Source: an uncultured Gammaproteobacteria bacterium
GTDB taxonomy: Bacteria > Patescibacteriota > Patescibacteriia > UBA11705 > DATKZF01
Reading direction: 5' to 3'
Assembly: GCA_964411255.1 (NCBI GenBank)
Contig: CAYPKD010000002.1
Span: 98,141 to 162,140 of the forward strand
DNA: 64,000 nucleotides
In this document: in pieces, positions 5,734 through 45,619 of the stretch
Position numbering within the stretch: position 1 is the stretch's first letter
Layout: each line of letters begins with the position of its first letter
The notes under the pieces: model-generated
Database searches by the model: none
What the model was told of the DNA's origin: nothing
Seen by the model: only the letters and a program-made list of their open reading frames with translations
Made by a program: the position numbers and the translations under genes

Positions 5734-6300
5734 ATGCCAAAGAAAATCACAAAAACCGAAAAGACGAAAAAGCCAGCTCCAAAAAAGAAAGCTGAGGTTA
5801 AGGCTGTGAAGAAAATAAGCAAGGCAGTTAAGCCTGAAGAGAAGAAAGAATCATCCTTAGTTAAAGCTTCGGAAAAAAAGAAACCAGAAGAAAAGAAAGC
5901 TGATAAAAAGAATGAATATTTATATGCGGTCGGTAAACGAAAATCCGCTATTGCCAGAGTGAGGGTTTATAAAAAAGGAGCAGGAAAGATTGTGGTTAAT
6001 GAAAGGGATTATGAAAAAGTATTCCCCCGCGCTACATGGCAGGAAATTATTATAAAACCTTTAAAATTAATTGGTCAAAAAGATAAATTAGATGTTACTG
6101 TAAAAATTGTGGGTGGCGGTACAAAAGGCCAGGCAGAAGCGATCAGACACGGGCTTTCAAAAGCCTTGATTCAGCTTAACCCTAATTTTAGAAAACCTTT
6201 GAAAAAAGCCGGTTATTTAACTCGCGATGCAAGAAAGAAAGAAAGAAAAAAGCCTGGTTTGAAAGGTGCGCGGCGTGCACCGCAATGGAGTAAACGTTAA
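5734..6300 (+). CDS. rpsI: 30S ribosomal protein S9 with ~60-aa Lys-rich N-terminal extension
   Basis: C-terminal 130 aa match S9 (YLYAVGKRKSAIARVRV...GGGTKGQAEAIRHG...KKPGLKGARRAPQWSKR); N-terminus is KKPAPKKK-rich. Confidence 0.9.
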   Translation: MPKKITKTEKTKKPAPKKKAEVKAVKKISKAVKPEEKKESSLVKASEKKKPEEKKADKKNEYLYAVGKRKSAIARVRVYKKGAGKIVVNERDYEKVFPRATWQEIIIKPLKLIGQKDKLDVTVKIVGGGTKGQAEAIRHGLSKALIQLNPNFRKPLKKAGYLTRDARKKERKKPGLKGARRAPQWSKR

Positions 6301-16000: not shown

Positions 16001-17522
16001 TGGAATAAAAAGCGAAAAAGAATATAGAAAAAGATATAAATCTGATCAAAAGTTGCCTAGCTCTCCAGAAACAATATATTTAGATTTTCCAGGTTATGGA
16101 ATTTTTTTAAGCAATGTGAGTAAACGAAGAAAACGGGAAAATATGTATCCTACCTGGCAAGAAGCTGCAGTAGCAGCTCAAAGATTGGGAATAAAAAATA
16201 GAAGAGATTATGGAAAAAAATACAAACTTAATCAAAGGCTACCCTGTGACCCTTCCAGCGTTTATATGAATTTTCCAGGTTATGAAATTTTTTTAGGTAA
16301 TGTAGGTAAGCGAAGAACACGGAAAAACTTATATCAAACCTGGCAAGAAGCTTCAGCAGCAACTCAGAGGCTTGGAATAAAAACTCAAATAGAATATAGA
16401 AAGAGGTATAAATCTGATCAAAAGTTGCCTAGCTCTCCAGACACATTATATTTTGATTTTCCAGGATGGCGAGTTTATTTAGGAAAAGTTGATAAAGAAT
16501 TAAATGAAACCGAAAAAACAGACAGAACAGGAGGTGACGATGTGAGTAAACGCAGAAAACGGCAAGACTTATATCAAACCTGGCAGGAAGCAGCCGTGGC
16601 TGCTCATAGGCTGGGAATAAAAAGCAGAAGCGAATATAGAAAGAAATATAGGTCTAATCAAAAATTGCCTGGAGCTCCTGACAACTTCTACAAGGATTTC
16701 CCCGGATGGAAAGTGTTTTTAGATGAAACTTCTTTAAATTACTATCCAACCTGGCAGGAAGCCAGTGAGTCTGCGCAGAAGTTGAAGATTCAAACCAGTA
16801 CAGAATATGAACAAAGGTATAATTTGAACAGCCGATTGCCAGCTGATCCTTCTGTCTACTATAAAGATTTTCCAGGTTGGATTATCTTTCTAAACGTAGA
16901 GAAAAAGGATTATTATCTTACCTGGCAGGAAGCCAGCGCAGCAGCGCAGAAAATGATGATTTTTAGTGAAAGCCAATATAAAATGGTTTATAAGGCTGAT
17001 CCAAGGTTGCCTTCAACTCCAGATAAGTTTTATGATGATTTTCCCAGTTGGTTGATATTTTTAGGCAAAGTTGATGCAGATTCATTAGTATTAATGCCGC
17101 ATGAAAAAATGGTAAAGCCAAATTATGATCAAATGGTTGAAATGCTTGAGGGAACAAATAAGTTTTTACCAGTTAATGAATTATTCAGATATTCGGGGAT
17201 AATATTAGCAAGTAAATCTGATACAGCCGTTGATGATATGATGCTCGATTTGTTGCGGGTTAAAATAACTACAGCAATTTATAAAGTATTTGAGATCAAC
17301 ATGTGTTCAGTTGAGGTGAAAAAGTATGATGATAAGTATCGCATTGACATTGTGTTTGGCAAGCTTCAAGTTGGAGCAACATCTGTCAGCACTGAAGTGC
17401 AGATACCGCTAGGATTTCCGCATAATGCTGTATTGTATTTAGAGGCGATTGATCCTGTCCTAAAGCAAGAATTACCAGATTTTGAGTTTAATGAAATAGT
17501 GGTTTTCATAGGTGAGTCATGA
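13095..17522 (+). CDS. giant repeat protein: ~20 tandem ~55-aa repeats (TWQEAS-A--KLGIK...Y...Y-D-RLPS-P--Y-DFPGW--FLG) plus a ~150-aa C-terminal domain shared with the 17748 gene
   Basis: 1475-aa ORF; repeats read directly from the translation; repeat resembles the integrase repeat unit with conserved LPS motif (Pfam Integrase_1-like, recalled from memory, unverified). Confidence 0.85.
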   Translation: MPKMARNYAYYDCWQKASIALLILDIRSKEEYENRYEEDSCLPIDPEKFYPGFPGWDQFLAQEELAVPKELSDRAEPEKEKIQRPERYATWQQASEAVKVLGIKSRTQYNRRYREDPMLPSSLNNSYPDFPGAEIFFGVKNEGKRKKNFYPTWQQASQAVQKLGVKSSSHYLRSYKQDDRLPSAPRTYYKDFPGWDKFLGRDEVKKEQIQPPERYATWQQASEAVKKLGITSWHQYHRRYREDPKLGSNPNILYEDFPGAEIFFGVKRKPRKKKNYYSSWQEAGKAAQMLGIKSSLQYVRKYKQDIRLPSNPNVKYKDFPGWDVFLGKAEIEEQTVETEYYATWQLASKAAVNLGIKSLVSYCSGAYMEDDKLHPDPQTFYEDFPGWKKFLGIKGKKKKGNEKKYSTWQEASMAAKKLGIKTSTQYCIEKRYKQDLRLPSSPQTYYSDFPGWGVFLGTHEVKGAAVARRKKKKYPTWQQASKAARRLGISSSTEYMRGKAYKKDSLLPSNPQQYYHDFPGWGEFLGTNNKRGAPRKNFYPTWQQARNAALKLGITASTGYINAEQYKFDRRLPSNPQLYYEDFPGWKKFLTPEVKSVEITDQMAASIEKGLDKKDGFASQKSSDVKRPKNGYYEDWETASRAAIKLGITTQEQYENNCHKDSRLPKKPKLCYSEFKDWDEFEKMAQNEYYSTWQEASEAVQNMGIKSWSEYSVRQNEDEMLPLHPDKEYEDFPGWRIYLGKENDTQNGLSYKKDKRKSGKNLYPTWKEASKIVREMGIKTSKQYRDRYKEDPRLPSTPERYYKDFPDWDKFFVREKNKKYTTWQEASEAARKLNIKRREDYFKEYERDPRLHKYPADIYKDFPGWRVFLNNRRPRYATWQEASQATIRLEISSRDEYLKRYTEDEKLRCAPYQVYEDFPGWRVYLGKAEKESKEDKEQERTGDDNVSKRRKREDMYQTWQEAAVAAQKVGIKSEKEYRKRYKSDQKLPSSPETIYLDFPGYGIFLSNVSKRRKRENMYPTWQEAAVAAQRLGIKNRRDYGKKYKLNQRLPCDPSSVYMNFPGYEIFLGNVGKRRTRKNLYQTWQEASAATQRLGIKTQIEYRKRYKSDQKLPSSPDTLYFDFPGWRVYLGKVDKELNETEKTDRTGGDDVSKRRKRQDLYQTWQEAAVAAHRLGIKSRSEYRKKYRSNQKLPGAPDNFYKDFPGWKVFLDETSLNYYPTWQEASESAQKLKIQTSTEYEQRYNLNSRLPADPSVYYKDFPGWIIFLNVEKKDYYLTWQEASAAAQKMMIFSESQYKMVYKADPRLPSTPDKFYDDFPSWLIFLGKVDADSLVLMPHEKMVKPNYDQMVEMLEGTNKFLPVNELFRYSGIILASKSDTAVDDMMLDLLRVKITTAIYKVFEINMCSVEVKKYDDKYRIDIVFGKLQVGATSVSTEVQIPLGFPHNAVLYLEAIDPVLKQELPDFEFNEIVVFIGES

Positions 17523-17547: not shown

Positions 17548-17747
17548 TGTAAAAACAGATCAACCCCTCGACTTCGCTCGGGGCAGGCAGATCAGCAACA
17601 GATATAAAACTTTATCAAAAAGGTGAGTTATTTGACTAAATTTAGGTAAATTTTATTAAAACAACTATAATATTGACAAAATAATAAAAATAGGCTAAAC
17701 TCTAATGTTACTGATATTTGACAAATTACGCATTCAGGAGGAAAAGA

Positions 17748-19862
17748 ATGCCAAAGACGCAGAAAAAGAGCAGAAAAAGCAAAGCAGATTTTTACCCAAC
17801 CTGGCAGGAAGCAGGTGCAGCAGCACAGAAATTAGGTATACGTACTTTGGGCGAGTATAATATTCGTTATCATGAAGATCCTCGTTTGCCATCAAACGCT
17901 TATGAGGTTTACGGTGAAGATTTCCCTGGAATGAAGGTTTTTCTGGGTGAAGCTTATAAGCCAAGAAATCGGAGTGTGAAAAGGCACTTTTACCGAACGT
18001 GGAAAGAAGCAGCGCAAGGAGCTGCTAATTTGGGCATTATGTCCAGAAGGCATTATAGCGGTAAATACCGTGATGATCCTTGGCTGCCTTCTCAGCCACA
18101 TCGCCAGTATAAGGATTTCCCTGGCTGGGATGAGTTCATGAGAACTGTCCAGCAGATTCGGGAAGAAAATGCCAAGAAAGAGGGTAAGATTGTCAAAAAG
18201 GATTATTATCCCACTTGCAAGCAGGCAAGTGACGCTGCCCAAAAGCTTGGCATCATGTCGCTTCGCGAATATCAAAGGCGTTATAAAGAAGATCCTCGTT
18301 TGCCTTCAACTCCTTCTGTCAAGTACAAAAATTTCCCAGGCTGGATTATTTTTCTTGGCAAAGACAAGGATGTCGCAGAAGAAAAATCGAAGAAGGATAA
18401 GCCTAAGCAGGATACGCCTAAGCTTGATAAACCCAAACTGGACAAGCCTAAGCAGGATAAGATCAAGAGGCGTAAAAATTATTTGACCTGGCAAGAAGCT
18501 GCAAAAGCAGTTGCTAAGCTGAATATCACCAGTATGCCAGAATACCAGAAACGCTGGAAAGAAGATCCTCGTCTGCCTGGCAATTTGTATGGCAGTTATA
18601 AGGACTTTCCTGGTACTGAAAAGTTCTTTGGCTTTGCAGCTTCTATCAAAGAGGCAGAATCAGAGCCAGAGGAAAATATGGCTGAGCCTGAAGAGGTAGA
18701 GGCTGCAACGTATTCAACTTGGCAGGCTGCTGCAGAAGCAGCAGCTGAGCTGGATATTATGACTCGTGAAGAGTACATAAAGGCTCATAGTGAAGATCCA
18801 AAATTGCCTGCTGACCCTGAAGCAGATTATGAGGATTTTCCTGGCTGGGACACTTTCTGTCAGTCTGCTGAAAAAGCCAGTACTGCGCAAAAGTCTGCTC
18901 CAAAGAAAAAGGGAAAGAAAAAGATCTACCAATCTTGGAAAGCTGCCAGTAGAGCCTGCCGAAGACTTGGCATCACCACTCGAGCTGAATATTTGAAAAG
19001 GTATAAAGAAAATCCCATGCTGCCTTCTCATCCTGAGAGAAGTTATAGGGATTGGCCAGGCTGGTCTGCTTTTTTCAATGGCGAGAGAGAAAGCAGGCCC
19101 AGGTTCCCGCCCAGAAGGAAATTCTATCCGACCTGGCAGGAAGCTCGAGAAGCTTGTCGTCGGCTGGATATTAGGGAACGCAAAGAATATGTAATTAGGT
19201 ACAGAGAAGATGAATTTCTTAACTCCAAACCTGAGCGATATTACGAGGATTTTCCTGGCTGGGATATCTTTCTTGCTCCAGTAGGAAAAGATCCGGCTGA
19301 AAAGGCTGCTAAGCCTACAAAGGCAAAGAAGCCTGAAAAGGCCGTATCGAAAAAGGCAACACCGAAAAAGGCTAAGCCCAAGGCAGTTGAGCCAGCTGAT
19401 CAGCCTGAAAAGGTTGAGGCAGAGCCTGGTGAAAAAGCAAAGAGCAAATTGGATTGGTTTGAGACTCTGGCTGAACCCTTGGCTGCAATAGAAGACTGGG
19501 ATGGTCAGCTGCTAACTTTACCGCCAAATTGGGTTTTTGTCTATTCAGGGGTTTTCAAGGCCGTTTCTGATGTAATGCTTGATGAACTGCTGTTGCAAAA
19601 TGCACGTTTGCAGATCATCATGAGCATGCACAAGGTATTTGGCCTGAATTTCTGTGAGGCAAATATCAGAAAAATCAAGGATGATTATCGACTTGATATT
19701 TCCTTTGCCAATATCTCAGGCAAAGGTGTTAATACCAATTTGGTACGCCCACTAGGCTATCCGTATTCAAGTATTCTGTTCACTGAAGTCATTCAGAAAG
19801 TGGCAGAAGAAGATTTTTCAGACTTTGTATTTTGGGAATGTTTGGTTTTCACCAAACGATAA
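17748..19862 (+). CDS. repeat protein paralogue (7 repeats, Pro/Lys-rich linkers, same C-terminal domain as the 13095 gene)
   Basis: the ORF track starts at a TTG at 17718; the ATG at 17748 follows an AGGAGG RBS; C-terminal ~150 aa align with the C-terminus of the 1475-aa protein; codon usage is visibly more GC-rich than neighbours. Confidence 0.8.
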   Translation: MPKTQKKSRKSKADFYPTWQEAGAAAQKLGIRTLGEYNIRYHEDPRLPSNAYEVYGEDFPGMKVFLGEAYKPRNRSVKRHFYRTWKEAAQGAANLGIMSRRHYSGKYRDDPWLPSQPHRQYKDFPGWDEFMRTVQQIREENAKKEGKIVKKDYYPTCKQASDAAQKLGIMSLREYQRRYKEDPRLPSTPSVKYKNFPGWIIFLGKDKDVAEEKSKKDKPKQDTPKLDKPKLDKPKQDKIKRRKNYLTWQEAAKAVAKLNITSMPEYQKRWKEDPRLPGNLYGSYKDFPGTEKFFGFAASIKEAESEPEENMAEPEEVEAATYSTWQAAAEAAAELDIMTREEYIKAHSEDPKLPADPEADYEDFPGWDTFCQSAEKASTAQKSAPKKKGKKKIYQSWKAASRACRRLGITTRAEYLKRYKENPMLPSHPERSYRDWPGWSAFFNGERESRPRFPPRRKFYPTWQEAREACRRLDIRERKEYVIRYREDEFLNSKPERYYEDFPGWDIFLAPVGKDPAEKAAKPTKAKKPEKAVSKKATPKKAKPKAVEPADQPEKVEAEPGEKAKSKLDWFETLAEPLAAIEDWDGQLLTLPPNWVFVYSGVFKAVSDVMLDELLLQNARLQIIMSMHKVFGLNFCEANIRKIKDDYRLDISFANISGKGVNTNLVRPLGYPYSSILFTEVIQKVAEEDFSDFVFWECLVFTKR

Positions 19863-20456: not shown

Positions 20457-20491
20457 TTGATATTGTTTCATTGACAATCAAGGAGCAAATC

Positions 20492-22294
20492 ATGTTTGAA
20501 CTATATGACTATCAGAAACGGCAATTAAAGGCAATTAATAAAGCATTTGAAACTACAATGCGAGCATTAATGGTAATGGCCAGCGGTTTGGGAAAAACTG
20601 TTGTTGCCGCATTTTGGGCAAAAGATCAGGTCCAAAATGGAAAAATGCTTTTCCTCTGCCATGAGAACGAAATTCTTGCTCAGGCATTGAGTATTTTTAG
20701 GCAAGTGCTAGGTGAAACTGTTTCGCTTGGCGTATTTACTGGCCAGCAAAAAGACTATGAAGAAGTTGATGTACTTTTTGCTTCTTTCCAGACAATGCGT
20801 GAATGGAAACAAGCCTTTTTCCCAAATGAGTTTGCCACTATCATTGTAGATGAATCTCATCATGGCCAAGCGCCGACCTACAAAGAGGTAATAGAATATT
20901 TTACTCCTCAAAAGCTTTTTGGCATGACAGCCACACCAGATCGAATGGATGAAAAAGACATTCGTGAGATTTTTGGTGATGAGGTTGTTAATCTATCGCT
21001 TGAAGAAGGCATTGCCAAAGGCTGGCTAACGCCAGTTGAATATTATGTAATGAATGATGGGCTGAATACCAAGGTTCTGCGAGAAATCGTTGATAGAGTA
21101 TTAAAAAAAGGTGAGCGTATTTCAATTAAACAACTCAATGAAACCATTTTTATTAAAGCTCGGGATGAAGAGATCGCTCGAATCATTCAGGGGCGTGGCA
21201 GAAAGACAATTATTTTCTGTGAGCGCATTGAGCATGCAGAAGAATTTGTTCAGCATTTGCCAAAAGCAGAGTGTTTTCACTCTTGTAAAAGTGCACATCA
21301 CAATGAACTTGTTTTGAAGGCTTTCCGAGATGGAACACTGCAATATATTTTAGCAGTTGATAAATTCAATGAAGGAATTGACATTCCTGATGCTGAAATG
21401 GTTGTGTTCCTGCGCTGTACAGACTCAAGAACTGTCTTTTTGCAGCAGTTGGGCAGGGGATTGCGAAAGATTGAGGGTAAGGATAATGTTGTAGTCCTTG
21501 ATTTTGTTGCTAACTGTGAACGGCTAAAAATAGTTAGAGATATGGCCGGAAGAGTAAAATCAATGGCTAACGGCCAGGCTTTGTGTGAAGATGTGCTAAA
21601 GGTTTCAGGCAAAGCATTTGATTTTCTATTCACTGATAAACAGCAGGATATTTTTACAATTCTTGAAACAATCAAGCCTCGATATATCTCAGATATCCCG
21701 CATCTTTTGGCTGAATATTCAGATAAAAACGAATTGCCGCCAGAGCAAGTGAGTGCCGGCACATCCAAAAATCTGTGGTGGAAATGTCAAAAAGTGAAAT
21801 GTGGATATGAATGGCAGGTTAGTGGGAATTGTAGAATATCTAAAGTGACAGGATGCCCCGCCTGTGCTAATCGTATTGCCACTTTAAACAATAGTTTGGC
21901 GGTAACTCATCCAGAATTAGCAGAAGAATATTCTGATAAAAATCAGTTCACTGTTGATGAGGTAGTTGCAGGCACAAGAAAAAAGTTGTGGTGGAAATGT
22001 AAAACATGCAATCATGAATGGCAGGCAGCAGGAGATAGAAGGGTTCACGGAACAGGCTGCCCAGTTTGCGCAATAAAAAGAACAATAGAAAAACGCAGAA
22101 AGAAATTTTTTCAGACTTGGCAGGAATCTAGTCGATTGGCAATATCCTTAGGAGTAAAAAATTGGCATGAGTATAGAAATATGTATAAAAAGGATCCAAG
22201 ATTGCCTTCTGTTCCACAAACATTTTATTTAAATTTTCCTAAAAAGCCAAACGGCCGTCCTGATTGGGATTTGTTTTTTGGGAGGAAAAAATAA
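20492..22294 (+). CDS. SF2 DExH-box helicase (ResIII / type-III restriction res-subunit-like N-terminus plus Helicase_C) fused to two zinc-ribbon modules and one C-terminal copy of the repeat module
   Basis: motifs GLGKT (I), DESHH (II), TATP (III), QQLGRGLR (VI); two repeats of LAEYSDKN...WWKC-K-C-GYEWQ...GCP-C (recalled as DUF4379-like zinc ribbon); final 60 aa TWQESSRLAISLGVKNWHEY...LPSVP...FLNFP...WDLFFG; ATG 20492 (RBS AAGGAG) preferred over the TTG at 20471. Confidence 0.85.
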   Translation: MFELYDYQKRQLKAINKAFETTMRALMVMASGLGKTVVAAFWAKDQVQNGKMLFLCHENEILAQALSIFRQVLGETVSLGVFTGQQKDYEEVDVLFASFQTMREWKQAFFPNEFATIIVDESHHGQAPTYKEVIEYFTPQKLFGMTATPDRMDEKDIREIFGDEVVNLSLEEGIAKGWLTPVEYYVMNDGLNTKVLREIVDRVLKKGERISIKQLNETIFIKARDEEIARIIQGRGRKTIIFCERIEHAEEFVQHLPKAECFHSCKSAHHNELVLKAFRDGTLQYILAVDKFNEGIDIPDAEMVVFLRCTDSRTVFLQQLGRGLRKIEGKDNVVVLDFVANCERLKIVRDMAGRVKSMANGQALCEDVLKVSGKAFDFLFTDKQQDIFTILETIKPRYISDIPHLLAEYSDKNELPPEQVSAGTSKNLWWKCQKVKCGYEWQVSGNCRISKVTGCPACANRIATLNNSLAVTHPELAEEYSDKNQFTVDEVVAGTRKKLWWKCKTCNHEWQAAGDRRVHGTGCPVCAIKRTIEKRRKKFFQTWQESSRLAISLGVKNWHEYRNMYKKDPRLPSVPQTFYLNFPKKPNGRPDWDLFFGRKK

Positions 22295-36050: not shown

Positions 36051-36148
36051 AGCAAATTAAATAGAAAATCAGCCTAAAGCAGGTTGATTTTTGTTTTGAA
36101 TTAATATTGAGTTTAATCATTGTTAATGCAAGTTCAATTTTTTCTAAA

Positions 36149-36315
36149 CAGGCTAAAGCCTGCTTTGCCCTTTCCAATGTTGGCTTGCGCCAAGTTACTT
36201 TTTGCCACCAAAAAGTAACCAAAAACCGCTGGGGGGCTTCAAATGCGAAGTAATGATTGAGTTTATGTATCGCGCAAGGGGCAATCAGCCCCCCAGACCC
36301 CCGGTGCTATAGAAG
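36149..36315 (+). ncRNA. GC-rich structured element, copy A (candidate novel ncRNA or miniature repeat)
   Basis: ~90% identical to 45314-45478; contains hairpins CAGGC-TAAA-GCCTG, TTGGC-TTGC-GCCAA, GTTACTTTTT-GCCACC-AAAAAGTAAC and GGGGGC-AATCA-GCCCCC; G/C-rich in an AT-rich intergenic region. Confidence 0.3.
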
Positions 36316-36385
36316 ATAAGATGTTTTAAATTTGAAATTTTGGCATGTTTATATATTTACACAGATTTTTTCGCCCGGTTTTCAT

Positions 36386-36877
36386 CTTTATGGTATAATT
36401 AGTAACAGAGAAACAAAGAAATTTATAAAAAGATATATTACATGTCTAATACAATTTTTCGTTTTAGAGAATTCCCTGTATATAACGATGCCAGGAAATT
36501 TAGAGCAGATTTGAAAAAATTATCAAAAGAAAAATTTCCTTCAGAAGAACAATACATTTTAAGAAGACAGCTTTGGCGAGCATTAGATTCAATAATATTA
36601 AATATTGCAGAGGGAGCAGATAAGCATTCTGATAAGGATTTCAGTCATTATCTAAATCATGCTCTTGGATCAATTAATGAAGTTATCGGATGCTTAGATT
36701 GCGCCTTAGATGATTATTATATTGAAATCACTGAACATAAAAGGTATTTAGAACAAGCTGAAAACATTATTAAACAATTAAAAGCATTTATTTCCAAGCT
36801 TAGAAAAGATGATAAACGTTTTTAGTTTTTATTTGTGTTTCTTTGTTTCTATGTGCTTTTGTTAATTTTATGCCAAA
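36386..36877 (+). repeat. ~0.5-kb direct duplication, copy 1 (promoter plus four-helix-bundle gene plus 5' end of next gene)
   Basis: near-identical to 39193-39697 (few substitutions, one 16-bp tandem insertion in copy 2). Confidence 0.9.
36442..36825 (+). CDS. four-helix-bundle protein (23S rRNA IVS protein / Avd-like family)
   Basis: LDSIILNIAEGADKHSDKDFSHYLNHALGSINEV matches the family core motif (NIAEG...S.KDF); extended -10 TATGGTATAAT at 36388-36398. Confidence 0.7.
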   Translation: MSNTIFRFREFPVYNDARKFRADLKKLSKEKFPSEEQYILRRQLWRALDSIILNIAEGADKHSDKDFSHYLNHALGSINEVIGCLDCALDDYYIEITEHKRYLEQAENIIKQLKAFISKLRKDDKRF

Positions 36878-37541
36878 CAAAAAATTTAAACCGTCAATGA
36901 TACCAATTTATGTAATTTTGGCCATTGCTATTATTACAGTCACTTTTTTAATAGTAGGCGGCGCATATTTGTGGCACTATTCTTTAATTACAAAAATCGA
37001 CACTTTAGAGCAAAATCAGGCTGTTTTAGAGCAAAAAATAGAGTATATACAACCAAAGGCAACTGAAGAAGAGATTATTAAAAAAGAAAAAGACAGCATT
37101 GAAGAAGAAGAAAAAGGATTCATCGAAGTAAAGGATTATGAATTTAAATATCCAACTGATTGGATAAAGAAAAAAGCTGAGTATTCGAAATATTCTGATA
37201 GTGTAGATTTTAATTTTTATGATCAATCAAATAATTTAATCGCTATGCTTGCCTGCCCAATACCGGAAATTGGATTTGAAGCAATGATCTACGAAGAGAC
37301 TAAAAGGCATATAAAAAAAAATAATAAGACATATGAAATTTTATTATGGGAAGGTAAAATCAGACCAGAATTGATAGAGCCAGATTTTGATCAGCCTGAA
37401 GAAGAAATGATTATTTTTATGAGAGAAAGCGATTGGCTGGATTCTGGAACAGATAGTTATATGAATTCATGCATGTTAATAATCAGACATTTGGATGACC
37501 TGGTAGGTACAGCTCAAGATATTTATCATTCAATTAAATAA
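36870..37541 (+). CDS. membrane-anchored paralogue (conserved MPNKKFKPSMIPIYVIL... anchor, variable ectodomain)
   Basis: start at the internal Met of the 36843 ORF, by analogy with 37547 and 38400; C-terminal domain homologous to the 41147 protein (YEFKYP..W...GFEAM.YEET). Confidence 0.7.
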   Translation: MPNKKFKPSMIPIYVILAIAIITVTFLIVGGAYLWHYSLITKIDTLEQNQAVLEQKIEYIQPKATEEEIIKKEKDSIEEEEKGFIEVKDYEFKYPTDWIKKKAEYSKYSDSVDFNFYDQSNNLIAMLACPIPEIGFEAMIYEETKRHIKKNNKTYEILLWEGKIRPELIEPDFDQPEEEMIIFMRESDWLDSGTDSYMNSCMLIIRHLDDLVGTAQDIYHSIK

Positions 37542-37546
37542 ATTTT

Positions 37547-38350
37547 ATGCCAAAGAAAAAATTCAAACCATCAATGATACCAATTTATGTGATTTTAGTA
37601 ATTGCTATTATTACAGTCACGTTTTTAATCGTAGGCGGAGCATATTTATGGCACTATTCTTTAATAACAAAAATCGACACTTTAGAACAAAGTCAGGCTG
37701 TTCTACAGCAAAAATTAAATGCTACCGCTGATGCTGAAGAAGATGAAGCTACAGATACTGAAGAAGAAGATGTTGAAGAAGCAGTTCAGCAAGATTTATC
37801 TCCATTAAAATCAGCTATAGAGGCTGAGGAAATAGCGCAGGATTATCAATATAGGCATGGTCAGCTAGAAGGTTTTATTTCACTTGAAAAAGGCAATTCG
37901 CTTGTTTTTGCAAAAAAAGCATTGGCAAAACTGTATGAAAATGAAGAAATTATTCAAGGCTTTTATTTTCCAAAAAGTCCGGCAAATGAAAATGTAATCT
38001 TTTTATCAACCAGCGTGGATGCATATAACCTGAAAACTCCCCATCTAAATAAAATTTATTCTTATAATATAAAAACAGGGGAAATAACTGAACTTTATGA
38101 GGAAAAAGTGACCAATGACCGATTATTGCGAACAATGGGTATTGAAGGATCAAAGCTAATTTTAATGGTAGATATGATTGATAATTCTCCTGGCCCTTGT
38201 TTTTCAATCTGGGCTCATTGGGATGATTTTGAATATCTTGAATTATCAGATGTTAATGCTGGTTTAGAATCTTATAAAGTCCCAGCGTATCAGGTAAATG
38301 AAGGCAGAAAGGAAAGTGAAAAGTGCGAAGAACAAATGAAGCAAGACTAA
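37547..38350 (+). CDS. membrane-anchored paralogue
   Basis: first ~55 aa ~90% identical to the 36870 and 38400 proteins; acidic linker; distinct ectodomain. Confidence 0.7.
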   Translation: MPKKKFKPSMIPIYVILVIAIITVTFLIVGGAYLWHYSLITKIDTLEQSQAVLQQKLNATADAEEDEATDTEEEDVEEAVQQDLSPLKSAIEAEEIAQDYQYRHGQLEGFISLEKGNSLVFAKKALAKLYENEEIIQGFYFPKSPANENVIFLSTSVDAYNLKTPHLNKIYSYNIKTGEITELYEEKVTNDRLLRTMGIEGSKLILMVDMIDNSPGPCFSIWAHWDDFEYLELSDVNAGLESYKVPAYQVNEGRKESEKCEEQMKQD

Positions 38351-38399
38351 TATTTATAACTATCTTTTAAAAAAATAAAAATAATAAATTCGTAACCTT

Positions 38400-39080
38400 A
38401 TGCCAAAGAAAAAATTTAAACCGTCAATGATTCCAATTTATGTAATTTTAGCCATTGCTATTATTACAGTCGCATTCCTTATTGTTGGCGGAGCCTATTT
38501 ATGGCACTATTCTTTAATAACAAAAATTGACACATTAGAGCAAAATCAGGCTGCTTTAGAGCTGGAGATTAAGAAAGCAAAGCCAGAGGCTGATAAAAAG
38601 GTGGAGGAGGTTGATGATGAAGTAGATGGAGAGGATGAAATAGGGGTAACTGATAAAGTATTTGAAGGTGATGGTTTCTCATTCATATATCCAGAAAAAT
38701 TTATTGCTGATGAAAAAGGACTTTGGACAAAAGAAGGATATGACCGCCATATTAATCCGTCCTATGGATGTGATACGTGTCAAATCCCGGAAATTGAAAT
38801 AAAGTCAGTGTCTACTTCTATTTCTTTGGAAAAATACATTCTTTCAGATTATGATTTGCCTGGCAATACCTTAAAGGAGATGACAAAACAAATAAATATT
38901 CCATATTCAACTATGAATCTGGGAGATAATGAGTTTATAAAAATTACTGTTGGAGACATGTATAATTTAACAGGGTATTATACAAAAGATGATAAGAACA
39001 TTGTTGCTTTTAGAGTCTATTTTGACAGTAGAGACACCTCAGAGTTAAGAGAGATTATTTCATCATTAAAGTTTGATTAA
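38400..39080 (+). CDS. membrane-anchored paralogue
   Basis: same conserved anchor; distinct ectodomain. Confidence 0.7.
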   Translation: MPKKKFKPSMIPIYVILAIAIITVAFLIVGGAYLWHYSLITKIDTLEQNQAALELEIKKAKPEADKKVEEVDDEVDGEDEIGVTDKVFEGDGFSFIYPEKFIADEKGLWTKEGYDRHINPSYGCDTCQIPEIEIKSVSTSISLEKYILSDYDLPGNTLKEMTKQINIPYSTMNLGDNEFIKITVGDMYNLTGYYTKDDKNIVAFRVYFDSRDTSELREIISSLKFD

Positions 39081-39192: not shown

Positions 39193-39697
39193 TTTATGGT
39201 ATAATTAGTAACAGAGAAACAGAAGAACAGAGAAACAAAGAAATTTTTAAAGATATATAACATGTCTAATACTATTTTTCGTTTTAGAGAATTCCCTGTA
39301 TATAAGGATGCCAGGAAATTTAGAGCAGATTTGAAAAAATTATCAAAAGAAAAATTTCCTTCAGAAGAACAATACATTTTAAGAAGACAGCTTTGGCGAG
39401 CATTAGATTCAATAATATTAAATATTGCAGAGGGAGCAGATAAGCATTCTGATAAGGATTTCAGTCATTATCTAAATCATGCTCTTGGATCAATTAATGA
39501 AGTTATCGGATGCTTAGATTGCGCCTTAGATGATTATTATATTGAAATCACTGAACATAAAAGGTATTTAGAACAAGCTGAAAACATTATTAAACAATTA
39601 AAAGCATTTATTTCCAAGCTTAGAAAAGATGATAAACGTTTTTAGTTTTTATTTGTGTTTCTTTGTTTCTATGTGCTTTTGTTAATTTTATGCCAAA
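39193..39697 (+). repeat. ~0.5-kb direct duplication, copy 2
   Basis: see copy 1; contains an extra GAAGAACAGAGAAACA tandem insertion. Confidence 0.9.
39262..39645 (+). CDS. four-helix-bundle protein (Avd-like), second copy
   Basis: identical to the 36442 product except N15K. Confidence 0.7.
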   Translation: MSNTIFRFREFPVYKDARKFRADLKKLSKEKFPSEEQYILRRQLWRALDSIILNIAEGADKHSDKDFSHYLNHALGSINEVIGCLDCALDDYYIEITEHKRYLEQAENIIKQLKAFISKLRKDDKRF

Positions 39698-40445
39698 GAA
39701 AAAGAAAACAAAAAACAAAACAGATTTTAAAATCATTCCATTTATTACAATGGTTATTTCAGGCCTGACATTGCTTTTTGTATTGATTAGCGTGGGTTAT
39801 ATTTTATATTACACAGCAGTGCTTACGCCTATTTTTCAGTTAGCCCAGAATCAAATGATTATACAGCAGGAAATTATTGATTTAACTGATGAGATTAAGA
39901 TAGCGGATGGAGATTCTGATCAAGGTGAAGTTATTCAAATCAGAGAGACCAATGCAACTGACAGCTGGATAGATTATTTTGATAATGATTTAGGAATTGC
40001 CATAAAATATCCAAAAGATTTTTTTCATCAAGAACCAAAGGTTACAGAAATTTCATGTAAAGATGTTAATTTTCCGAGAGAATGTCCCAAAATTGATCAG
40101 GCGGTTGAAGTTGTGACAGGCAGTCCTATTGAAAATTCTTTAGCTGCAGGTTTGCCAACTTCATATTATTGGCATAATCCAAATGGTGAAAAGGTAATGA
40201 TTAATAATGATTCATATTGCTTGTATCGCCATGTTGAAGGAGCAGCAGGTTCCACTTTTGTAAGTTATTATTATACAACCGTTTCGAAAAATATGTGTAA
40301 AGTAATTAATTTAGTTGTAAAATATCAAAATTGTAGTATTCTGGGATCTAAAGGTGATGAGGATTATGAAAAATGTATAATGGAAAATGAACAGACAACG
40401 CCAGATGTGATTGATAAAGTTATTTCAACTTTAGAATTTAATTAA
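39690..40445 (+). CDS. membrane-anchored paralogue (second sub-array)
   Basis: MPKKKKTKNKTDFKIIPFITMVISGLTLLF anchor (start at the internal Met of the 39663 ORF); Cys-containing ectodomain. Confidence 0.65.
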   Translation: MPKKKKTKNKTDFKIIPFITMVISGLTLLFVLISVGYILYYTAVLTPIFQLAQNQMIIQQEIIDLTDEIKIADGDSDQGEVIQIRETNATDSWIDYFDNDLGIAIKYPKDFFHQEPKVTEISCKDVNFPRECPKIDQAVEVVTGSPIENSLAAGLPTSYYWHNPNGEKVMINNDSYCLYRHVEGAAGSTFVSYYYTTVSKNMCKVINLVVKYQNCSILGSKGDEDYEKCIMENEQTTPDVIDKVISTLEFN

Positions 40446-40461
40446 ATATTTATTTATCATT

Positions 40462-41127
40462 ATGCCAAACAAAAAAAACAAAAAACAATTACTAATAGTT
40501 CCATGGATAACAATGATAATTTCAGGTGTAGTTCTGATTTTTGTCATTGTTATTTTCGGTTATTTAGCTTATTACACTACTGTGCTCGAACCAATTTTAA
40601 AACTATCTGACCATCAGGCTCTTTTAGAACAAAAGATTGAAAAAGTGCAGCCAGACGTTGATTTAGAAGAGGTGGTGGAAGAAGATGCTGTTGTTGTTGA
40701 GGAAATGAATGTTTATACTAGTAGGATTTTTGATTTTCAATTTGAATATTCAAAAAATTGGGTTATTGATGATTCATATTCAGATTTATTAAACTTTCTA
40801 TTAGTAAAATTGGAAGATAGGTCAATTACCACAAAAAGTCCGTTTTCTGATTACGCATCATTATGGGTTGAAGTTAATAGTCCAGGTAGGGGAATAGAGT
40901 ATTTTAATACAGTAATCAGCACTGATAAAATTATTGTTGATGGTATTATTGCTGATAGACAGGAAATTTCAGGTATTTATGATAATAATAAAATAAATGC
41001 ATATGTAGTTAGATTTGAAAAGGGAGGCGATTCATATTTCATTCATTATCAAGTTGATTCAAAGAAATGGCAAGAAAATAAAAAGAAATTTAATACTTTC
41101 CTTAGTAGTTTTGAATTTATTGATTAA
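40462..41127 (+). CDS. membrane-anchored paralogue
   Basis: anchor MPNKKNKKQLLIVPWITMIISGVVLIF similar to 39690; ectodomain resembles the 34983 protein (FDFQFEYSKNW). Confidence 0.65.
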   Translation: MPNKKNKKQLLIVPWITMIISGVVLIFVIVIFGYLAYYTTVLEPILKLSDHQALLEQKIEKVQPDVDLEEVVEEDAVVVEEMNVYTSRIFDFQFEYSKNWVIDDSYSDLLNFLLVKLEDRSITTKSPFSDYASLWVEVNSPGRGIEYFNTVISTDKIIVDGIIADRQEISGIYDNNKINAYVVRFEKGGDSYFIHYQVDSKKWQENKKKFNTFLSSFEFID

Positions 41128-41146
41128 TATTTTGACTTAAAAAAAT

Positions 41147-41854
41147 ATGCCTGAAAAAACCAAAACAAATAAACCAGATAATAAATCCGCATTTAACGCC
41201 TGGGCGCTTATTGCAGCAATTTTAATTACAGTTATTTTTGTCGGAATTATACTGATCTGGCAAAATAATGCAATGAAGCAATTAAAAAATGAAGTTGCTG
41301 GCACTCAGAAAACTTTATCTCAAAAAGTTGAGAAAATTGAAAATGGAACATCTAAAGAAACAGTAGTAACTGAAGCAGAAGCAGATCCAACAGAAGATTG
41401 GGAAACATTTAGTATTGCTGGATATGAATTCATTTATCCAGATAGCTGGACTTATACTGAGCAGGAATCGCAAGTTCCAGGCCAGACTATTTATGGATTT
41501 TACGATGAAAATGATGTTAGAGTAGGATTATTGTTTACGCCTGTTTTAGAAACCGGATTTGAAGCTATGGTTTATGAAGAAACAAACCGACTTTATAAAA
41601 AGAAAGATGATGTCTACACAATAAAATTATTAGAAGGCCGGCCAGATTTAACTGAATATCCGGAATATTATGAGCAATTACCTGAAAAAGAAATGATTAT
41701 TATAATGCAGGAGAAAAAGCCTCCTCAGGAGTTTTATCAGGGGGATTTCCCGGAAAGTTTGTCTGATGATGGTTCAGTTTTATTAATTATTAGAAATTTA
41801 GATGAAACAACCATGGTGGAGATAGCAGATCTAATTTATGAATCAATAGAGTAG
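41147..41854 (+). CDS. membrane-anchored paralogue
   Basis: TM anchor; C-terminal domain homologous to the 36870 protein. Confidence 0.65.
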   Translation: MPEKTKTNKPDNKSAFNAWALIAAILITVIFVGIILIWQNNAMKQLKNEVAGTQKTLSQKVEKIENGTSKETVVTEAEADPTEDWETFSIAGYEFIYPDSWTYTEQESQVPGQTIYGFYDENDVRVGLLFTPVLETGFEAMVYEETNRLYKKKDDVYTIKLLEGRPDLTEYPEYYEQLPEKEMIIIMQEKKPPQEFYQGDFPESLSDDGSVLLIIRNLDETTMVEIADLIYESIE

Positions 41855-44248: not shown

Positions 44249-45247
44249 TTGTCAAAAAAGGAGGGAAACATGACCTTTGAACAACTACAAGAAAAATTCG
44301 GGTTTGGCTTTGCTGTACGAGTATATGAAAATCAAACTGATCCAAAATTTTTTAAAGGTTTAAATCTAGATCAATGGGTTGAAATTGCAATGATCACCAA
44401 TGATCAAACAGATTTAAACAAGCAAGCAATGAAAAAAATTCAATCAGCTATAAAGCCTTTTCAATTTTGGGCCAAAGTTGAAAGAGAAAGAAATATTGAC
44501 TTTTGGTCATTTGAAAATGCGGAATTTACAGAGTTTGTGCGCAAACGCATGTATGAAACAGCTTATCGTTTTTGGCATTGGCTTAGCGTTTTCATATGTT
44601 ATAATAGTTTTTCAGATGATGAAAAGGAAGAAATTCTCAGGCAGTTATTTAAGTATGCCAGAAATAATACAAAAAATTTAAAGCAAATGTATAAAACAGC
44701 AGAAATTGCTTTGCCTGAAGGTTTGGATCCAGGACTGAATGATTTTAGAGAGCAAATTTTAGAAAAAATGATTGATATTGCTCAAACATTTGAAGACTGG
44801 TTTTTTATCATTGATAATTGTAAAGATGGTTATCGATATGTTGATAAAATTATGCCTTTGATTCAAACTCCATCACAATGGTGGAAAGCCTGGTTGAAAT
44901 TTCTATATTGTTTTGATGATTTTAGGCAAAAAGCTTTTTATAAACTTGAGGAGCTCTGCAGCAGCTTTGATGATTGGTATCAATTCTATTGTAGATTTGC
45001 TAGACTTGATAAAAGCTTGAGATTCAAAGTTTTTCATTACATGATGAATACGGCAAATAGTAAGCTAGAGTGGTGGATCACATACAAAGTGGCCAGCAAG
45101 TTTGATGATTTTGATACATATTTAGAAGTTGTAAAAAAACTATTAGAGCATGATTTATCAATAGAGCAGTATGCAGAAATGTGGGAGGATGCGTCTGATT
45201 GGGATGATCAGGAAATGATTATTGTAGCAATTCAAAAGAGAATTTAA
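44249..45247 (+). CDS. hypothetical protein (Trp/Phe-rich, alpha-helical)
   Basis: 332-aa ORF with AGGAGG RBS; no motif recognised. Confidence 0.55.
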   Translation: MSKKEGNMTFEQLQEKFGFGFAVRVYENQTDPKFFKGLNLDQWVEIAMITNDQTDLNKQAMKKIQSAIKPFQFWAKVERERNIDFWSFENAEFTEFVRKRMYETAYRFWHWLSVFICYNSFSDDEKEEILRQLFKYARNNTKNLKQMYKTAEIALPEGLDPGLNDFREQILEKMIDIAQTFEDWFFIIDNCKDGYRYVDKIMPLIQTPSQWWKAWLKFLYCFDDFRQKAFYKLEELCSSFDDWYQFYCRFARLDKSLRFKVFHYMMNTANSKLEWWITYKVASKFDDFDTYLEVVKKLLEHDLSIEQYAEMWEDASDWDDQEMIIVAIQKRI

Positions 45248-45256
45248 ATTACATGA

Positions 45257-45283
45257 CCAGCTAAACTGAGCTGGTTTTTTTTA
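45257..45283 (+). terminator. intrinsic terminator with CTAAACTGAG loop
   Basis: CCAGC-TAAACTGA-GCTGG plus T9. Confidence 0.6.
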
Positions 45284-45313
45284 TAAATTTAATAATATTT
45301 ATTTTTACTTATG

Positions 45314-45478
45314 CAGGCGAAAGCCTGCGTTGCCTTTTCCAATGTTGGCTTGCGCCAAGTTACTTTTTGGCGCCAAAAAGTAACCAAAAACCGCTGGGGG
45401 GCTTCAAATGCGAAGTAATGATGATGTTTCCATCTCGCTCCGGGGGCAATCAGCCCCCCAGACCCCCGTTGCGATAGA
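45314..45478 (+). ncRNA. GC-rich structured element, copy B (candidate novel ncRNA or miniature repeat)
   Basis: paralogue of 36149-36315; here CAGGC-GAAA-GCCTG and the perfect 26-nt palindrome GTTACTTTTTGGCGCCAAAAAGTAAC; bracketed by terminators at 45257 and 45502. Confidence 0.3.
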
Positions 45479-45501
45479 TTAAAAATCGCTTTAACATATA
45501 C

Positions 45502-45529
45502 AACCAGCTAAACTGAGTTGGTTTTTTTA
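45502..45529 (+). terminator. intrinsic terminator with CTAAACTGAG loop
   Basis: AACCAGC-TAAACTGA-GTTGGTT plus T7. Confidence 0.6.
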
Positions 45530-45619
45530 ATTTATTCTCGCATTTTGAATAATTAAATGCTAAAATAAAATGTAGTTCTTTGTAAAAAAGCGCAGTTTGA
45601 TCTGCATAGGGAGTAGTAA

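Follow-up and report, generated by a model that had tools for sequence, protein, structure and literature searches.

A dispersed, pseudoknotted non-coding repeat family of Patescibacteria, encountered as two diverged copies in a 64-kb metagenomic stretch

What are two closely similar, self-complementary and GC-rich sequences of about 165 bp doing between the genes of an AT-rich stretch of DNA? The question is raised by 64,000 nucleotides of Patescibacteria sequence (contig CAYPKD010000002.1, positions 98,141 to 162,140; the window in what follows), part of a 164-kb metagenomic contig, in which such a sequence occurs twice (copies A and B). The initial annotation had described a two-copy element, about 90% identical, intergenic and co-oriented with its flanking genes, and had proposed either a novel non-coding RNA or a miniature mobile element. 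The count of two holds for the window alone: A and B belong, as two diverged members, to a structured non-coding family dispersed in many copies across Patescibacteria, or candidate phyla radiation (CPR), with at least 103 loci in genomes of the GTDB and further copies in metagenomes. The family is real, conserved and pseudoknotted, and it is absent from Rfam 15. A structured non-coding repeat was thus correctly recognised, and both of the options proposed for it are live.

Pairwise alignment of 36120-36340 with 45285-45505 gave 89% column identity and zero gaps. The likeness begins with a first hairpin, CAGGC.AAAGCCTG, and tails off some 10 nt past ACCCCC (repeat family D13), and the invariant 32- and 26-mers of the two copies occur exactly twice each in the window and never in 100 shuffles. 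Their 108-nt cores have a GC content of 0.49 (A) and 0.53 (B), while the surrounding 200-nt bins range from 0.25 to 0.45 and the window as a whole is at about 33%. Both copies are intergenic, lie on the + strand like all adjoining open reading frames (ORFs) and contain no ORF themselves. Differences between them fall in five spots, mostly loops as the initial annotation had it: the tetraloop of the first hairpin (TAAA in A, GAAA in B), the bases just after it, the 4-nt loop (CCAC versus GCGC) of the 10-11-bp GTTACTTTTT(G) hairpin, called P2 below, the tip of the central hairpin, and two bases past the C-run. The stems of P1, P2 and the P3 base carry zero substitutions. Folding of the + strand was stronger than that of shuffled sequences (z = -2.8 and -4.4 for the two copies), and the - strand of both copies folds about equally well. 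A covariance model of the family scored the core of copy A (36194-36301) at 89.4 bits and that of copy B (45359-45466) at 87.7 bits, and neither this model nor a mismatch search nor a repeat finder returned any further copy within the 64 kb.

Beyond the window, an 18-mer scan of metagenome contigs added three copies of 85-91% identity, each located at the end of a contig (loci L009, L011 and L015), and L009 also holds a relative of about 60% identity (L009b) with the same architecture and other stem sequences. A genome-scan pattern, AAAAANNNCTGGGGN{45,75}CCCCAGACCCC, was built from the features common to close and distant copies and applied to one genome per GTDB species. Nearly all of the loci listed lie in metagenome-assembled genomes (MAGs) of Patescibacteria, often with several copies per genome. 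The matches listed include Dojkabacteria, Falkowbacteria, Peregrinibacteria, Peribacteria, Magasanikbacteria, Kerfeldbacteria, Parcubacteria and Saccharibacteria, many MAGs named 'Patescibacteria group', low-GC MAGs labelled Gammaproteobacteria, one Bacteroidota and one Oscillospiraceae MAG. At least 24 distinct near-identical copies are present in MAG SO_2017_GW3_23 (the burst genome), and four full plus two partial copies in an 8-kb piece of CALKWM01. The covariance model gave 90 matches at E<=1e-6 in 78 sources, some of them outside the search pattern. An exact 20-mer of the 3' core had no match in the genomes, the viral contigs scanned held no copy, and a search of full-text literature on CPR/Patescibacteria RNA motifs and repeats, and for the motif sequence itself, found nothing relevant.

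The anatomy common to these members was derived from the 90 covariance-model matches (model R1), with covariation counted on 88 distinct sequences. The core spans about 110 nt, and the full unit about 165 nt in the organism of the window. P2 is a hairpin of 9-12 bp whose upper part is a near-invariant U5:A5 tract closed by a G-C pair under a 4-nt loop; a linker, (C)A5, and three variable nucleotides follow. P3 opens with CUGGGG, closes with CCCCAG and encloses 45-75 nt (up to about 140) of lineage-specific sequence, and behind it a tail, ACCCC, repeats the 3' strand of the P3 base. In many lineages an optional GC-rich hairpin of differing sequence, P1, sits 5' of P2. The 80%-de-duplicated consensus reads ..t.yTTTTTg..r.cAAAAAg.a..cAAAAA.y.CtGGGG...CCCCaGACCCC and has no conserved positions inside P3. 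Nucleotides 2-4 of the P2 loop are complementary to the triplet between the A5 linker and CUGGGG, and at least 17 different triplet pairs occur, among them GCA/UGC, CUG/CAG, GUU/AAC, CCG/CGG, GUC/GAC, UUC/GAA, UUG/CAA, CUA/UAG, GUG/CAC and UUU/AAA. Pairing over the 88 rows was as follows.

P2: 98.4% of cells paired; 7 of 10 pairs change on both sides
Pseudoknot: 88.3% of cells paired; 3 of 3 pairs change on both sides
P3 base: 95% of cells paired
Whole structure: 94.1% paired, versus 77% in shuffles and 41-55% with slid partners

The covariation score over P2, pseudoknot and P3 was reached by 0 of 500 shuffles. Pair types at the three pseudoknot positions were CG44/AU17/GC11/UA9, AU46/GC32/UA1 and GC27/CG26/AU7/UA4. 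With a loop pairing outside its hairpin and covariation in support of that pairing, the element is an H-type pseudoknot, which is a structural class and not a homology family, and single-strand folding is the only possible explanation for it. Copies within CALKWM01 carry distinct yet complementary triplets (UGC/GCA, GAA/UUC, CAA/UUG, UAG/CUA and AAA/UUU), indicating that selection has acted on the fold in old copies.

Because the search pattern fixed CTGGGG/CCCCAG, the conservation of those bases is partly a matter of ascertainment. Matches independent of the pattern show compensated changes in the P3 base (CCGGGG/CCCCGG, UUGGGG/CCCCAA, UCGGGG/CCCCGA and CCGGGUG/CACCCGG). In two variants with an altered P3 C-run the tail is altered alike (CACCCGG-ACCCA; GCCCAG-GCCCG), indicating that the tail is a replica of the 3' strand of the P3 base and not a partner of an interior G-run. 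The idea that an interior GGG(C) pairs with the ACCCC tail in a second pseudoknot was rejected as a general feature: where the tail is ACCCA or GCCCG, the interior contains no G-run.

In the window the two copies are laid out as follows, all on the + strand.

36149..36313, +: copy A, whole unit, delimited by its likeness to B (P0, P1, P2, linker, pseudoknot triplet, P3, C-run tail and a 3' extension of about 10 nt)
36149..36162, +: P0 hairpin of A, CAGGC-TAAA-GCCTG, lineage-specific, outside the family core and missing upstream of the distant relative L009b
36180..36193, +: P1 of A, small GC hairpin TTGGC-TTGC-GCCAA, directly 5' of P2
36194..36219, +: P2 hairpin of A, GTTACTTTTTG-CCAC-CAAAAAGTAAC, with the flipped loop CCAC at 36205-36208
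36220-36225, +: linker of A, CAAAAA
36226-36228, +: pseudoknot triplet of A, CCG
36229..36296, +: P3 of A, long irregular hairpin with base CTGGGGGGCT (36229-36238) pairing AGCCCCCCAG (36287-36296) and a variable interior
36297..36302, +: second C-run of A, tail ACCCCC
45313..45478, +: copy B, whole unit, delimited by its likeness to A
45313..45328, +: P0 hairpin of B, GCAGGC-GAAA-GCCTGC
45345..45358, +: P1 hairpin of B, TTGGC-TTGC-GCCAA
45359..45384, +: P2 hairpin of B, GTTACTTTTTG-GCGC-CAAAAAGTAAC, loop at 45370-45373
45385..45393, +: linker CAAAAA and pseudoknot triplet CCG of B
45394..45461, +: P3 hairpin of B, base CTGGGGGGCT/AGCCCCCCAG, interior hairpin tip unlike that of A
45462..45467, +: C-run tail of B, ACCCCC

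In copy B the loop GCGC can make two of the three family-register pairs with CCG, and the first C of CTGGGG offers a partner for a third, G-C pair; B gives the impression of a mostly intact member of the family. For comparison, a member in L009 (4774-4881) has a perfect pseudoknot. In copy A the loop reads CCAC, and its exact reverse complement, GUGG, would pair with CCG. The pseudoknot of A is broken (one of three pairs) because the P2 loop is flipped, and A is probably a decaying or inactive copy that has lost its pseudoknot. The GGCGCC/GCCACC difference had been read as neutral loop variation; it concerns the pseudoknot partner itself.

Does the element serve a particular gene? In the window, copy A follows mraZ, rsmH, an ftsL-like gene and the gene of a 355-aa protein, and precedes a 23S_rRNA_IVP four-helix-bundle gene; copy B follows a Na+/H+ exchanger gene and the gene of a 332-aa protein, and precedes a B12-binding radical SAM gene. 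The initial annotation regarded copy B as bracketed by two intrinsic terminators, and two terminator-like hairpins are indeed present, within a 47-nt direct repeat.

36064..36092, +: terminator-like hairpin belonging to the 355-aa gene, some 55 nt before copy A
45243..45289, +: upstream unit of the 47-nt direct repeat (family D17), with terminator-like hairpin CCAGCTAAACTGAGCTGG and a T-run, the terminator of the 332-aa gene
45490..45536, +: downstream unit of the 47-nt direct repeat (family D17), with a terminator-like hairpin

The two units are 81% identical and occur nowhere else in the window, and the upstream one covers the stop-codon region and terminator of the 332-aa gene. They could represent a long duplication made when the element arrived, or a separate duplication of the terminator. 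The initial annotation had suggested that copy B is a riboswitch-like leader of the radical SAM gene; spelled out, B would be a leader or attenuator there, and copy A would act likewise for the four-helix-bundle gene. In favour of this, both copies lie upstream of a co-oriented gene, and one of these hairpins stands 3' of B, 95 nt ahead of the radical SAM start codon. Across the family this picture dissolves. Clustering of 520 neighbouring ORFs all against all found no cross-genome family beyond a few housekeeping genes, and a Pfam scan of 150 neighbour proteins gave 138 families, none of them more than three times, so no single downstream gene class emerges and the downstream genes come from unrelated families. 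The downstream gene is co-oriented in only about half of the members, the elements of L009, L011 and L091 face the 3' end of a convergent gene, and a terminator-like site lies within 110 nt downstream in just 6 of 98 members. The hairpin after B duplicates the terminator of the upstream gene and is not a conserved part of the element, and the hypervariable P2 loop and the P3 interior, both unconserved across lineages, leave no conserved ligand pocket of the kind an aptamer with an expression platform would have. We consider a leader function scarcely credible. The suggestion of an independent, terminator-bounded transcript fared no better: the terminator bracket is peculiar to copy B, own terminators are rare, and a simple consensus scan for positioned -10-like hexamers, in a group whose promoters are poorly known, gave no clear peak above background at a fixed distance on either strand.

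What the context does reveal is a preference for orientation. Between tandem genes the element runs in the direction of its neighbours 34 times and against it 9 times (28 and 8 with the burst genome left out, p=0.001); convergent and divergent spacers are represented 29 versus 11 times (17 versus 9 without the burst genome, which is not significant). A frequent position is 35-130 nt 3' of a gene in the same orientation, for instance rplL, uvrA or a TrmB-like gene, each of them in two lineages, and in the Oscillospiraceae MAG the element stands 24 nt past the stop codon of the upstream co-oriented gene. The explanation to which we lean, at slightly less than even chances, is that the element is a cis-acting RNA module of 3' untranslated regions or intergenic transcripts that has been multiplied as a repeat. 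It would be transcribed together with, or by read-through from, the co-oriented upstream gene; the compact pseudoknot would then form a stable, nuclease-resistant block, and this block would define or protect transcript ends or act as a processing site, a role comparable to that of structured repeats of the repetitive extragenic palindromic (REP), BOX or Correia type, while the family would have multiplied as a non-autonomous repeat. A hairpin, an A-rich linker and a loop pairing are the classical layout of an RNA H-type pseudoknot such as preQ1-I.

A number of observations weigh against an RNA module of this kind. In the model-based alignment G-U pairs are no more frequent than A-C combinations (11 versus 15 of 1897 cells) and one-sided changes are almost absent, so that wobble pairing marks neither RNA nor a strand; an earlier strand call from a G-U excess on a MAFFT alignment was discarded as largely a register artefact. 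GNRA/UNCG tetraloops show no strand asymmetry either (4 versus 4 of 35). A terminator-like hairpin stands between the upstream gene and the element in 29 of 98 members, A and B included, and co-transcription would accordingly be limited. The + strand of the element is the locally G-rich strand in 79 of 94 loci; with its orientation following GC skew, the element may track replication instead of transcription, and in L047 all copies are antisense to the neighbouring genes. Exact P2-loop flips are DNA-level events that destroy the pseudoknot; at least five lineages show them, among them L009b, L066 and L094 besides copy A, and in SO_2017_GW3_23 about every second copy does. The ACCCC tail, finally, appears to be left without an explanation by a cis-acting RNA.

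Watson-Crick-only pairing and flipping loops together make a mobile element recognised as single-stranded DNA a serious rival. The family would then be a non-autonomous mobile repeat at the DNA level, folded and recognised on the lagging-strand template, and its RNA structure would be a by-product. By analogy with IS200/IS605 ends, and with REPs and their HUH/Y1 enzymes, P3 could be a subterminal palindrome, with the triplet bordering it on the 5' side as a 'guide' to a complementary site in the P2 loop, about 17 nt upstream. Recognition of the left-end cleavage site of IS608, where a guide 5' of the hairpin foot pairs with a site about 19 nt off, counts in favour of this analogy. The strict covariation with next to no G-U, the G-rich strand bias and an element that carries neither promoter nor terminator of its own fit such a repeat, and so do the exact flips in independent lineages (about 50:50 in the burst genome), the 24 or more near-identical copies in that genome, the clusters that include P2-only partial copies, and the extra hairpins nested in the P2 loop (L011, L028 and L025); nested hairpins, bursts of identical copies and partial copies are all DNA-level behaviour. 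Assemblies that break within the element are likewise as expected of a repeat. The organism of the window recurs in hypersaline-sediment metagenomes, and copy B is always either identical there, with its sequence unchanged in four other assemblies, or the contig terminates inside the element. That short-read assemblies of several samples break in the element speaks for its repeat nature and is a cause of fragmented CPR bins. No assembly of the window organism without the copies was available for an empty-site comparison, all being identical or broken inside the element, and no nucleotide-level syntenic pairs were found among GTDB representatives.

The hallmarks of transposition are missing, by contrast, at the ends of the unit. 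A miniature inverted-repeat transposable element had been envisaged on the condition of many copies with target-site duplications and no transcript: the many dispersed copies exist, and the ends of the unit in A, B and the 24 near-identical copies show neither a target-site duplication nor a terminal inverted repeat. The inverted repeat that CTGGGG/CCCCAG does form is internal, not terminal. No transposase was found within about 8 kb around each copy; transposase, integrase and reverse transcriptase are not enriched among the neighbours, none being among the 25 most frequent neighbour Pfam families. Searching 813 kb gave only two Y1_Tnp-like genes, neither flanked by the element: one in L041 (7336-7974, +; Y1_Tnp Pfam E=5.8e-07) and one in L123 (5492-6040, +; no Pfam match at E<=0.01, a weak match to a REP-associated tyrosine transposase (RAYT) query and shared motifs). 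Both genes appear to belong with a GTAG-type palindrome distinct from the element. The lack of copies in the viral contigs scanned, the compensatory changes by which diverged copies within a genome retain the fold, and a core sequence kept across very distant CPR classes, unlike species-specific REPs, also stand against this rival, and the strand preference in tandem contexts fits transcription equally well. We regard mobility as single-stranded DNA as possible, at a likelihood well below even.

Several observations on copies and their surroundings belong beside these. Contig L004 begins at the base equivalent to window position 45443 and L129 stops at that equivalent to 36187; the contig ends of L009, L011 and L015 also fall in the element, and such breaks sit at the edge of the stretch shared between copies. 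In L047 (4588-4680) two P2-plus-A-run modules lacking P3 lie immediately 5' of two full elements, indicating that partial copies accumulate next to full ones. In SO_2017_GW3_23 (about 55% GC; L039 4430-5030, with equivalents in L090, L097, L100 and L102) the element is embedded in composite non-coding arrays, with two + copies 336 or 431 nt apart and, between them, an opposite-strand, divergent copy of a second type (P2 CACUUUCC/GGAAAGUG, tail CCCCCCUGACCCC) plus shared modules. The RAYT-like gene of L123 is followed by a GTAG-GGGCGAATGATTATTTGCCC palindrome (6085-6125) of classical REP form, and the gene itself contains the peptide VGANNHSPL, which resembles a translated REP; gene and palindrome seem to be a REP system separate from the element.

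Relatives of the 3' core alone were seen in higher-GC, non-CPR genomes, in the form (C)GCTGGGG(GG)CT-loop-AGCCCCCCAGACCCCC without P2. They were found at L010 6576-6680, in L013 and L024 (the same sequence), at L017 4507-4540 and in L044, L051, L088, L103 and L112 (MAG NGEE_A_bin7, 63-65% GC), are multi-copy in one MAG, are in some cases arranged as inverted pairs or tandem units, and have 32 nt in common with the window element. Either homology or convergence may account for them. In L062 (851-925, a Synergistaceae MAG) a hairpin CCTGGGGTTTTTCCCCAGG is followed by a tandem array of about eight heptamers, CCCCAGG/CCCCAGA, indicating that the CCCCAGACCCC motif, which equals 1.5 heptamers, can expand into a repeat tract.

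The invariant A and U tracts raise the question of which strand acts. If the functional strand were the - strand, its U5 linker could lie in the major groove of the P2 A5:U5 tract, parallel to the A strand, and form a U.A-U triple-helix pseudoknot of the type known from telomerase RNA, SAM-II and the ENE (element for nuclear expression), followed by P1. The U-A pairs of P2, present in 84-88 of the 88 sequences, and the invariant linker are as base triples would demand, and an A-rich linker in the minor groove would not call for such invariance. One divergent subfamily has UUUCC/GGAAA with the linker CAAAGA (UCUUUG on the - strand), and one of its positions fits a change from U.A-U to C+.G-C; the - strand folds as well as the +, and wobble pairs do not favour the +. 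On the other side, the - strand is antisense to both neighbours in 34 of 43 tandem contexts and shows no clear promoter and no terminator, the covariation of the triples comes from that single subfamily, whose adjoining position does not fit, and L054 replaces the U5:A5 tract of P2 altogether. A functional - strand appears very unlikely.

Could the element instead be an RNA in its own right? A free-standing class, such as a small self-cleaving ribozyme or a protein-binding small RNA, multi-copy like twister or hammerhead, would have its active core at the junction of P2, pseudoknot, P3 base and C-run. The compact pseudoknotted core, with U5, A5, A5, CUGGGG and CCCCAGACCCC invariant around a freely variable insert, has the look of such a class, and multiple copies with no gene association and no Rfam match, and a fold kept in old paralogues, agree with it. 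It is difficult to reconcile with the missing positioned promoter and the rarity of downstream terminators, with the absence of conserved unpaired nucleotides within P3 and with flipped, pseudoknot-less copies being common, and the conserved runs are partly imposed by the genome-scan pattern. As an account of the family it seems unlikely. A broader conjecture, still doubtful in our view, is that the family represents a new functional RNA class, specific to Patescibacteria or greatly expanded there, with a double-hairpin pseudoknot core, possibly with A/U triples. These minimal genomes would then draw, at dozens of intergenic sites, on an activity seated in the junction (U5/A5/A5, CUGGGG/CCCCAG, ACCCC): self-cleavage, for instance, a block to exonucleases, or the binding of a protein conserved among CPR bacteria.

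Comparison with known families offered no ready assignment, in agreement with the initial annotation, which had matched the element to no RNase P, SRP, tmRNA, 6S or common riboswitch consensus. Rfam 15 at gathering scores had no match on the element, no known ribozyme model included, and the sole match in the window was a ribosomal protein L10 leader (RF00557, 11653-11778, +, 74 bits). At E<=10 the region of copy A drew only chance snoRNA- and miRNA-type matches below 21 bits, and the L091 element nothing relevant. Across 24 family loci no Rfam match overlapped an element, the Rfam tRNA matches lying elsewhere, and ARAGORN found neither tRNA nor transfer-messenger RNA in the window.

Some other features of the window deserve mention. 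The 127-aa 23S_rRNA_IVP gene downstream of copy A, which is Avd-like, has a 99%-identical second copy 2.8 kb away (36429-36728 and 39249-39548), with a similar upstream region that includes a promoter-like stretch (36387-36439 / 39193-39261) and lacks the element; the gene seems to have been duplicated as a cassette of its own. The interval separating the two four-helix-bundle genes holds paralogous genes of 226-267 aa (36843-39080; also 39663-41854) with no Pfam match above threshold and a common 198-nt stretch at 83-84% (D8), which may encode secreted or pilin-like proteins. The Avd-like gene suggested a diversity-generating retroelement with template and variable repeats, an idea rejected since the differences between A and B are not adenine-specific and four-helix-bundle genes do not recur near other copies. 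A and B as attL and attR of a 9-kb island were also dismissed: no integrase was found, and the family context renders the idea unnecessary. Elsewhere, 13095-17522 and 17718-19862 (+) encode proteins of 1475 and 714 aa made of 'Integrase repeat unit' domains (PF14882; 11 and 3 stretches), seen at the DNA level as 18-21 tandem repeat copies at a spacing of about 190 nt, and they are followed by a ResIII/DEAD helicase gene (20471-22294, +) with DUF4379 zinc fingers and a terminal INT_rpt fragment.

How does the family compare with known systems? With REP and their mosaic arrangements (BIME), BOX, Correia (CREE), bcr1 and RPE repeats it shares being short, non-coding, multi-copy, intergenic and strongly self-complementary, a preference for gene ends, clusters with partial copies and broken assemblies. 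Such functions as are known for these repeats are at the RNA level (mRNA stabilisation, processing, termination) on top of a selfish repeat. Those families are specific to a species or genus, whereas the core described here is common to many CPR classes, and we know of none with a covarying hairpin-loop pseudoknot and invariant U5/A5/A5 tracts. The element is also at least 110 nt long with two hairpins, against the single imperfect palindrome of 20-40 nt in a REP, has no GTAG-type 5' tetranucleotide, flanks no RAYT, and lacks the terminal inverted repeats and target-site duplications of Correia or bcr1. IS200/IS605 ends and PATEs, their derivatives that lack ORFs, resemble it in strand specificity, hairpins with GC runs, a 5'-foot sequence pairing about 17-19 nt away, absence of target-site duplication and orientation by replication strand. 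Those elements have hairpins at both the left and the right end and insert 3' of a fixed tetra- or pentanucleotide. They differ in that no TnpA/TnpB ORF stands beside any of our copies, no flanking tetranucleotide is conserved, and a single hairpin-plus-guide module, one 'end' and not two, has its partner site in the loop of a second conserved hairpin. Integron attC sites, too, are structured single-strand recombination sites, multi-copy, with a variable centre between conserved ends and replication-strand specificity; here, in contrast, no R''/R' boxes (RYYYAAC/GTTRRRY) span the element, no cassette arrays or integrase are nearby, and two hairpins with a pseudoknot replace one long bulged hairpin.

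Among RNAs, preQ1-I with its A-rich minor-groove tail, and telomerase RNA, SAM-II and ENE with their U.A-U triples, share the succession of a hairpin, a linker that is homopurine on the + or homopyrimidine on the - strand, and a loop pairing beyond it, as well as invariant A/U tracts; for our element a triple helix is only predicted. Unlike them, it has no Rfam match, a 4-nt hypervariable loop without a ligand pocket, a 10-11-bp stem, many copies and no associated gene class. Twister, hammerhead and ribozymes like that of hepatitis delta virus likewise have compact pseudoknotted cores that accommodate an optional insert of variable sequence, occur many times per genome and in distant taxa, and have no set partner gene; our element matches none of their Rfam models and has no conserved unpaired core nucleotides inside P3.

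Patescibacteria have streamlined genomes of about 1 Mb and almost no characterised non-coding RNA or repeat biology, and yet in some of them the element is present dozens of times despite that streamlining. The core persists in groups as far apart as Dojkabacteria, Saccharibacteria and Peregrinibacteria, with pseudoknot compensation of textbook quality. Acting as RNA, the element would amount to a cis element or ribozyme-like class that spans the phylum and is missing from Rfam, and it would give a handle on how transcripts are shaped in these organisms. Acting as DNA, it would be a mobile repeat of a new, structure-dependent kind. In both cases it is of practical use as a marker, which breaks short-read CPR assemblies and can be annotated by a covariance model.

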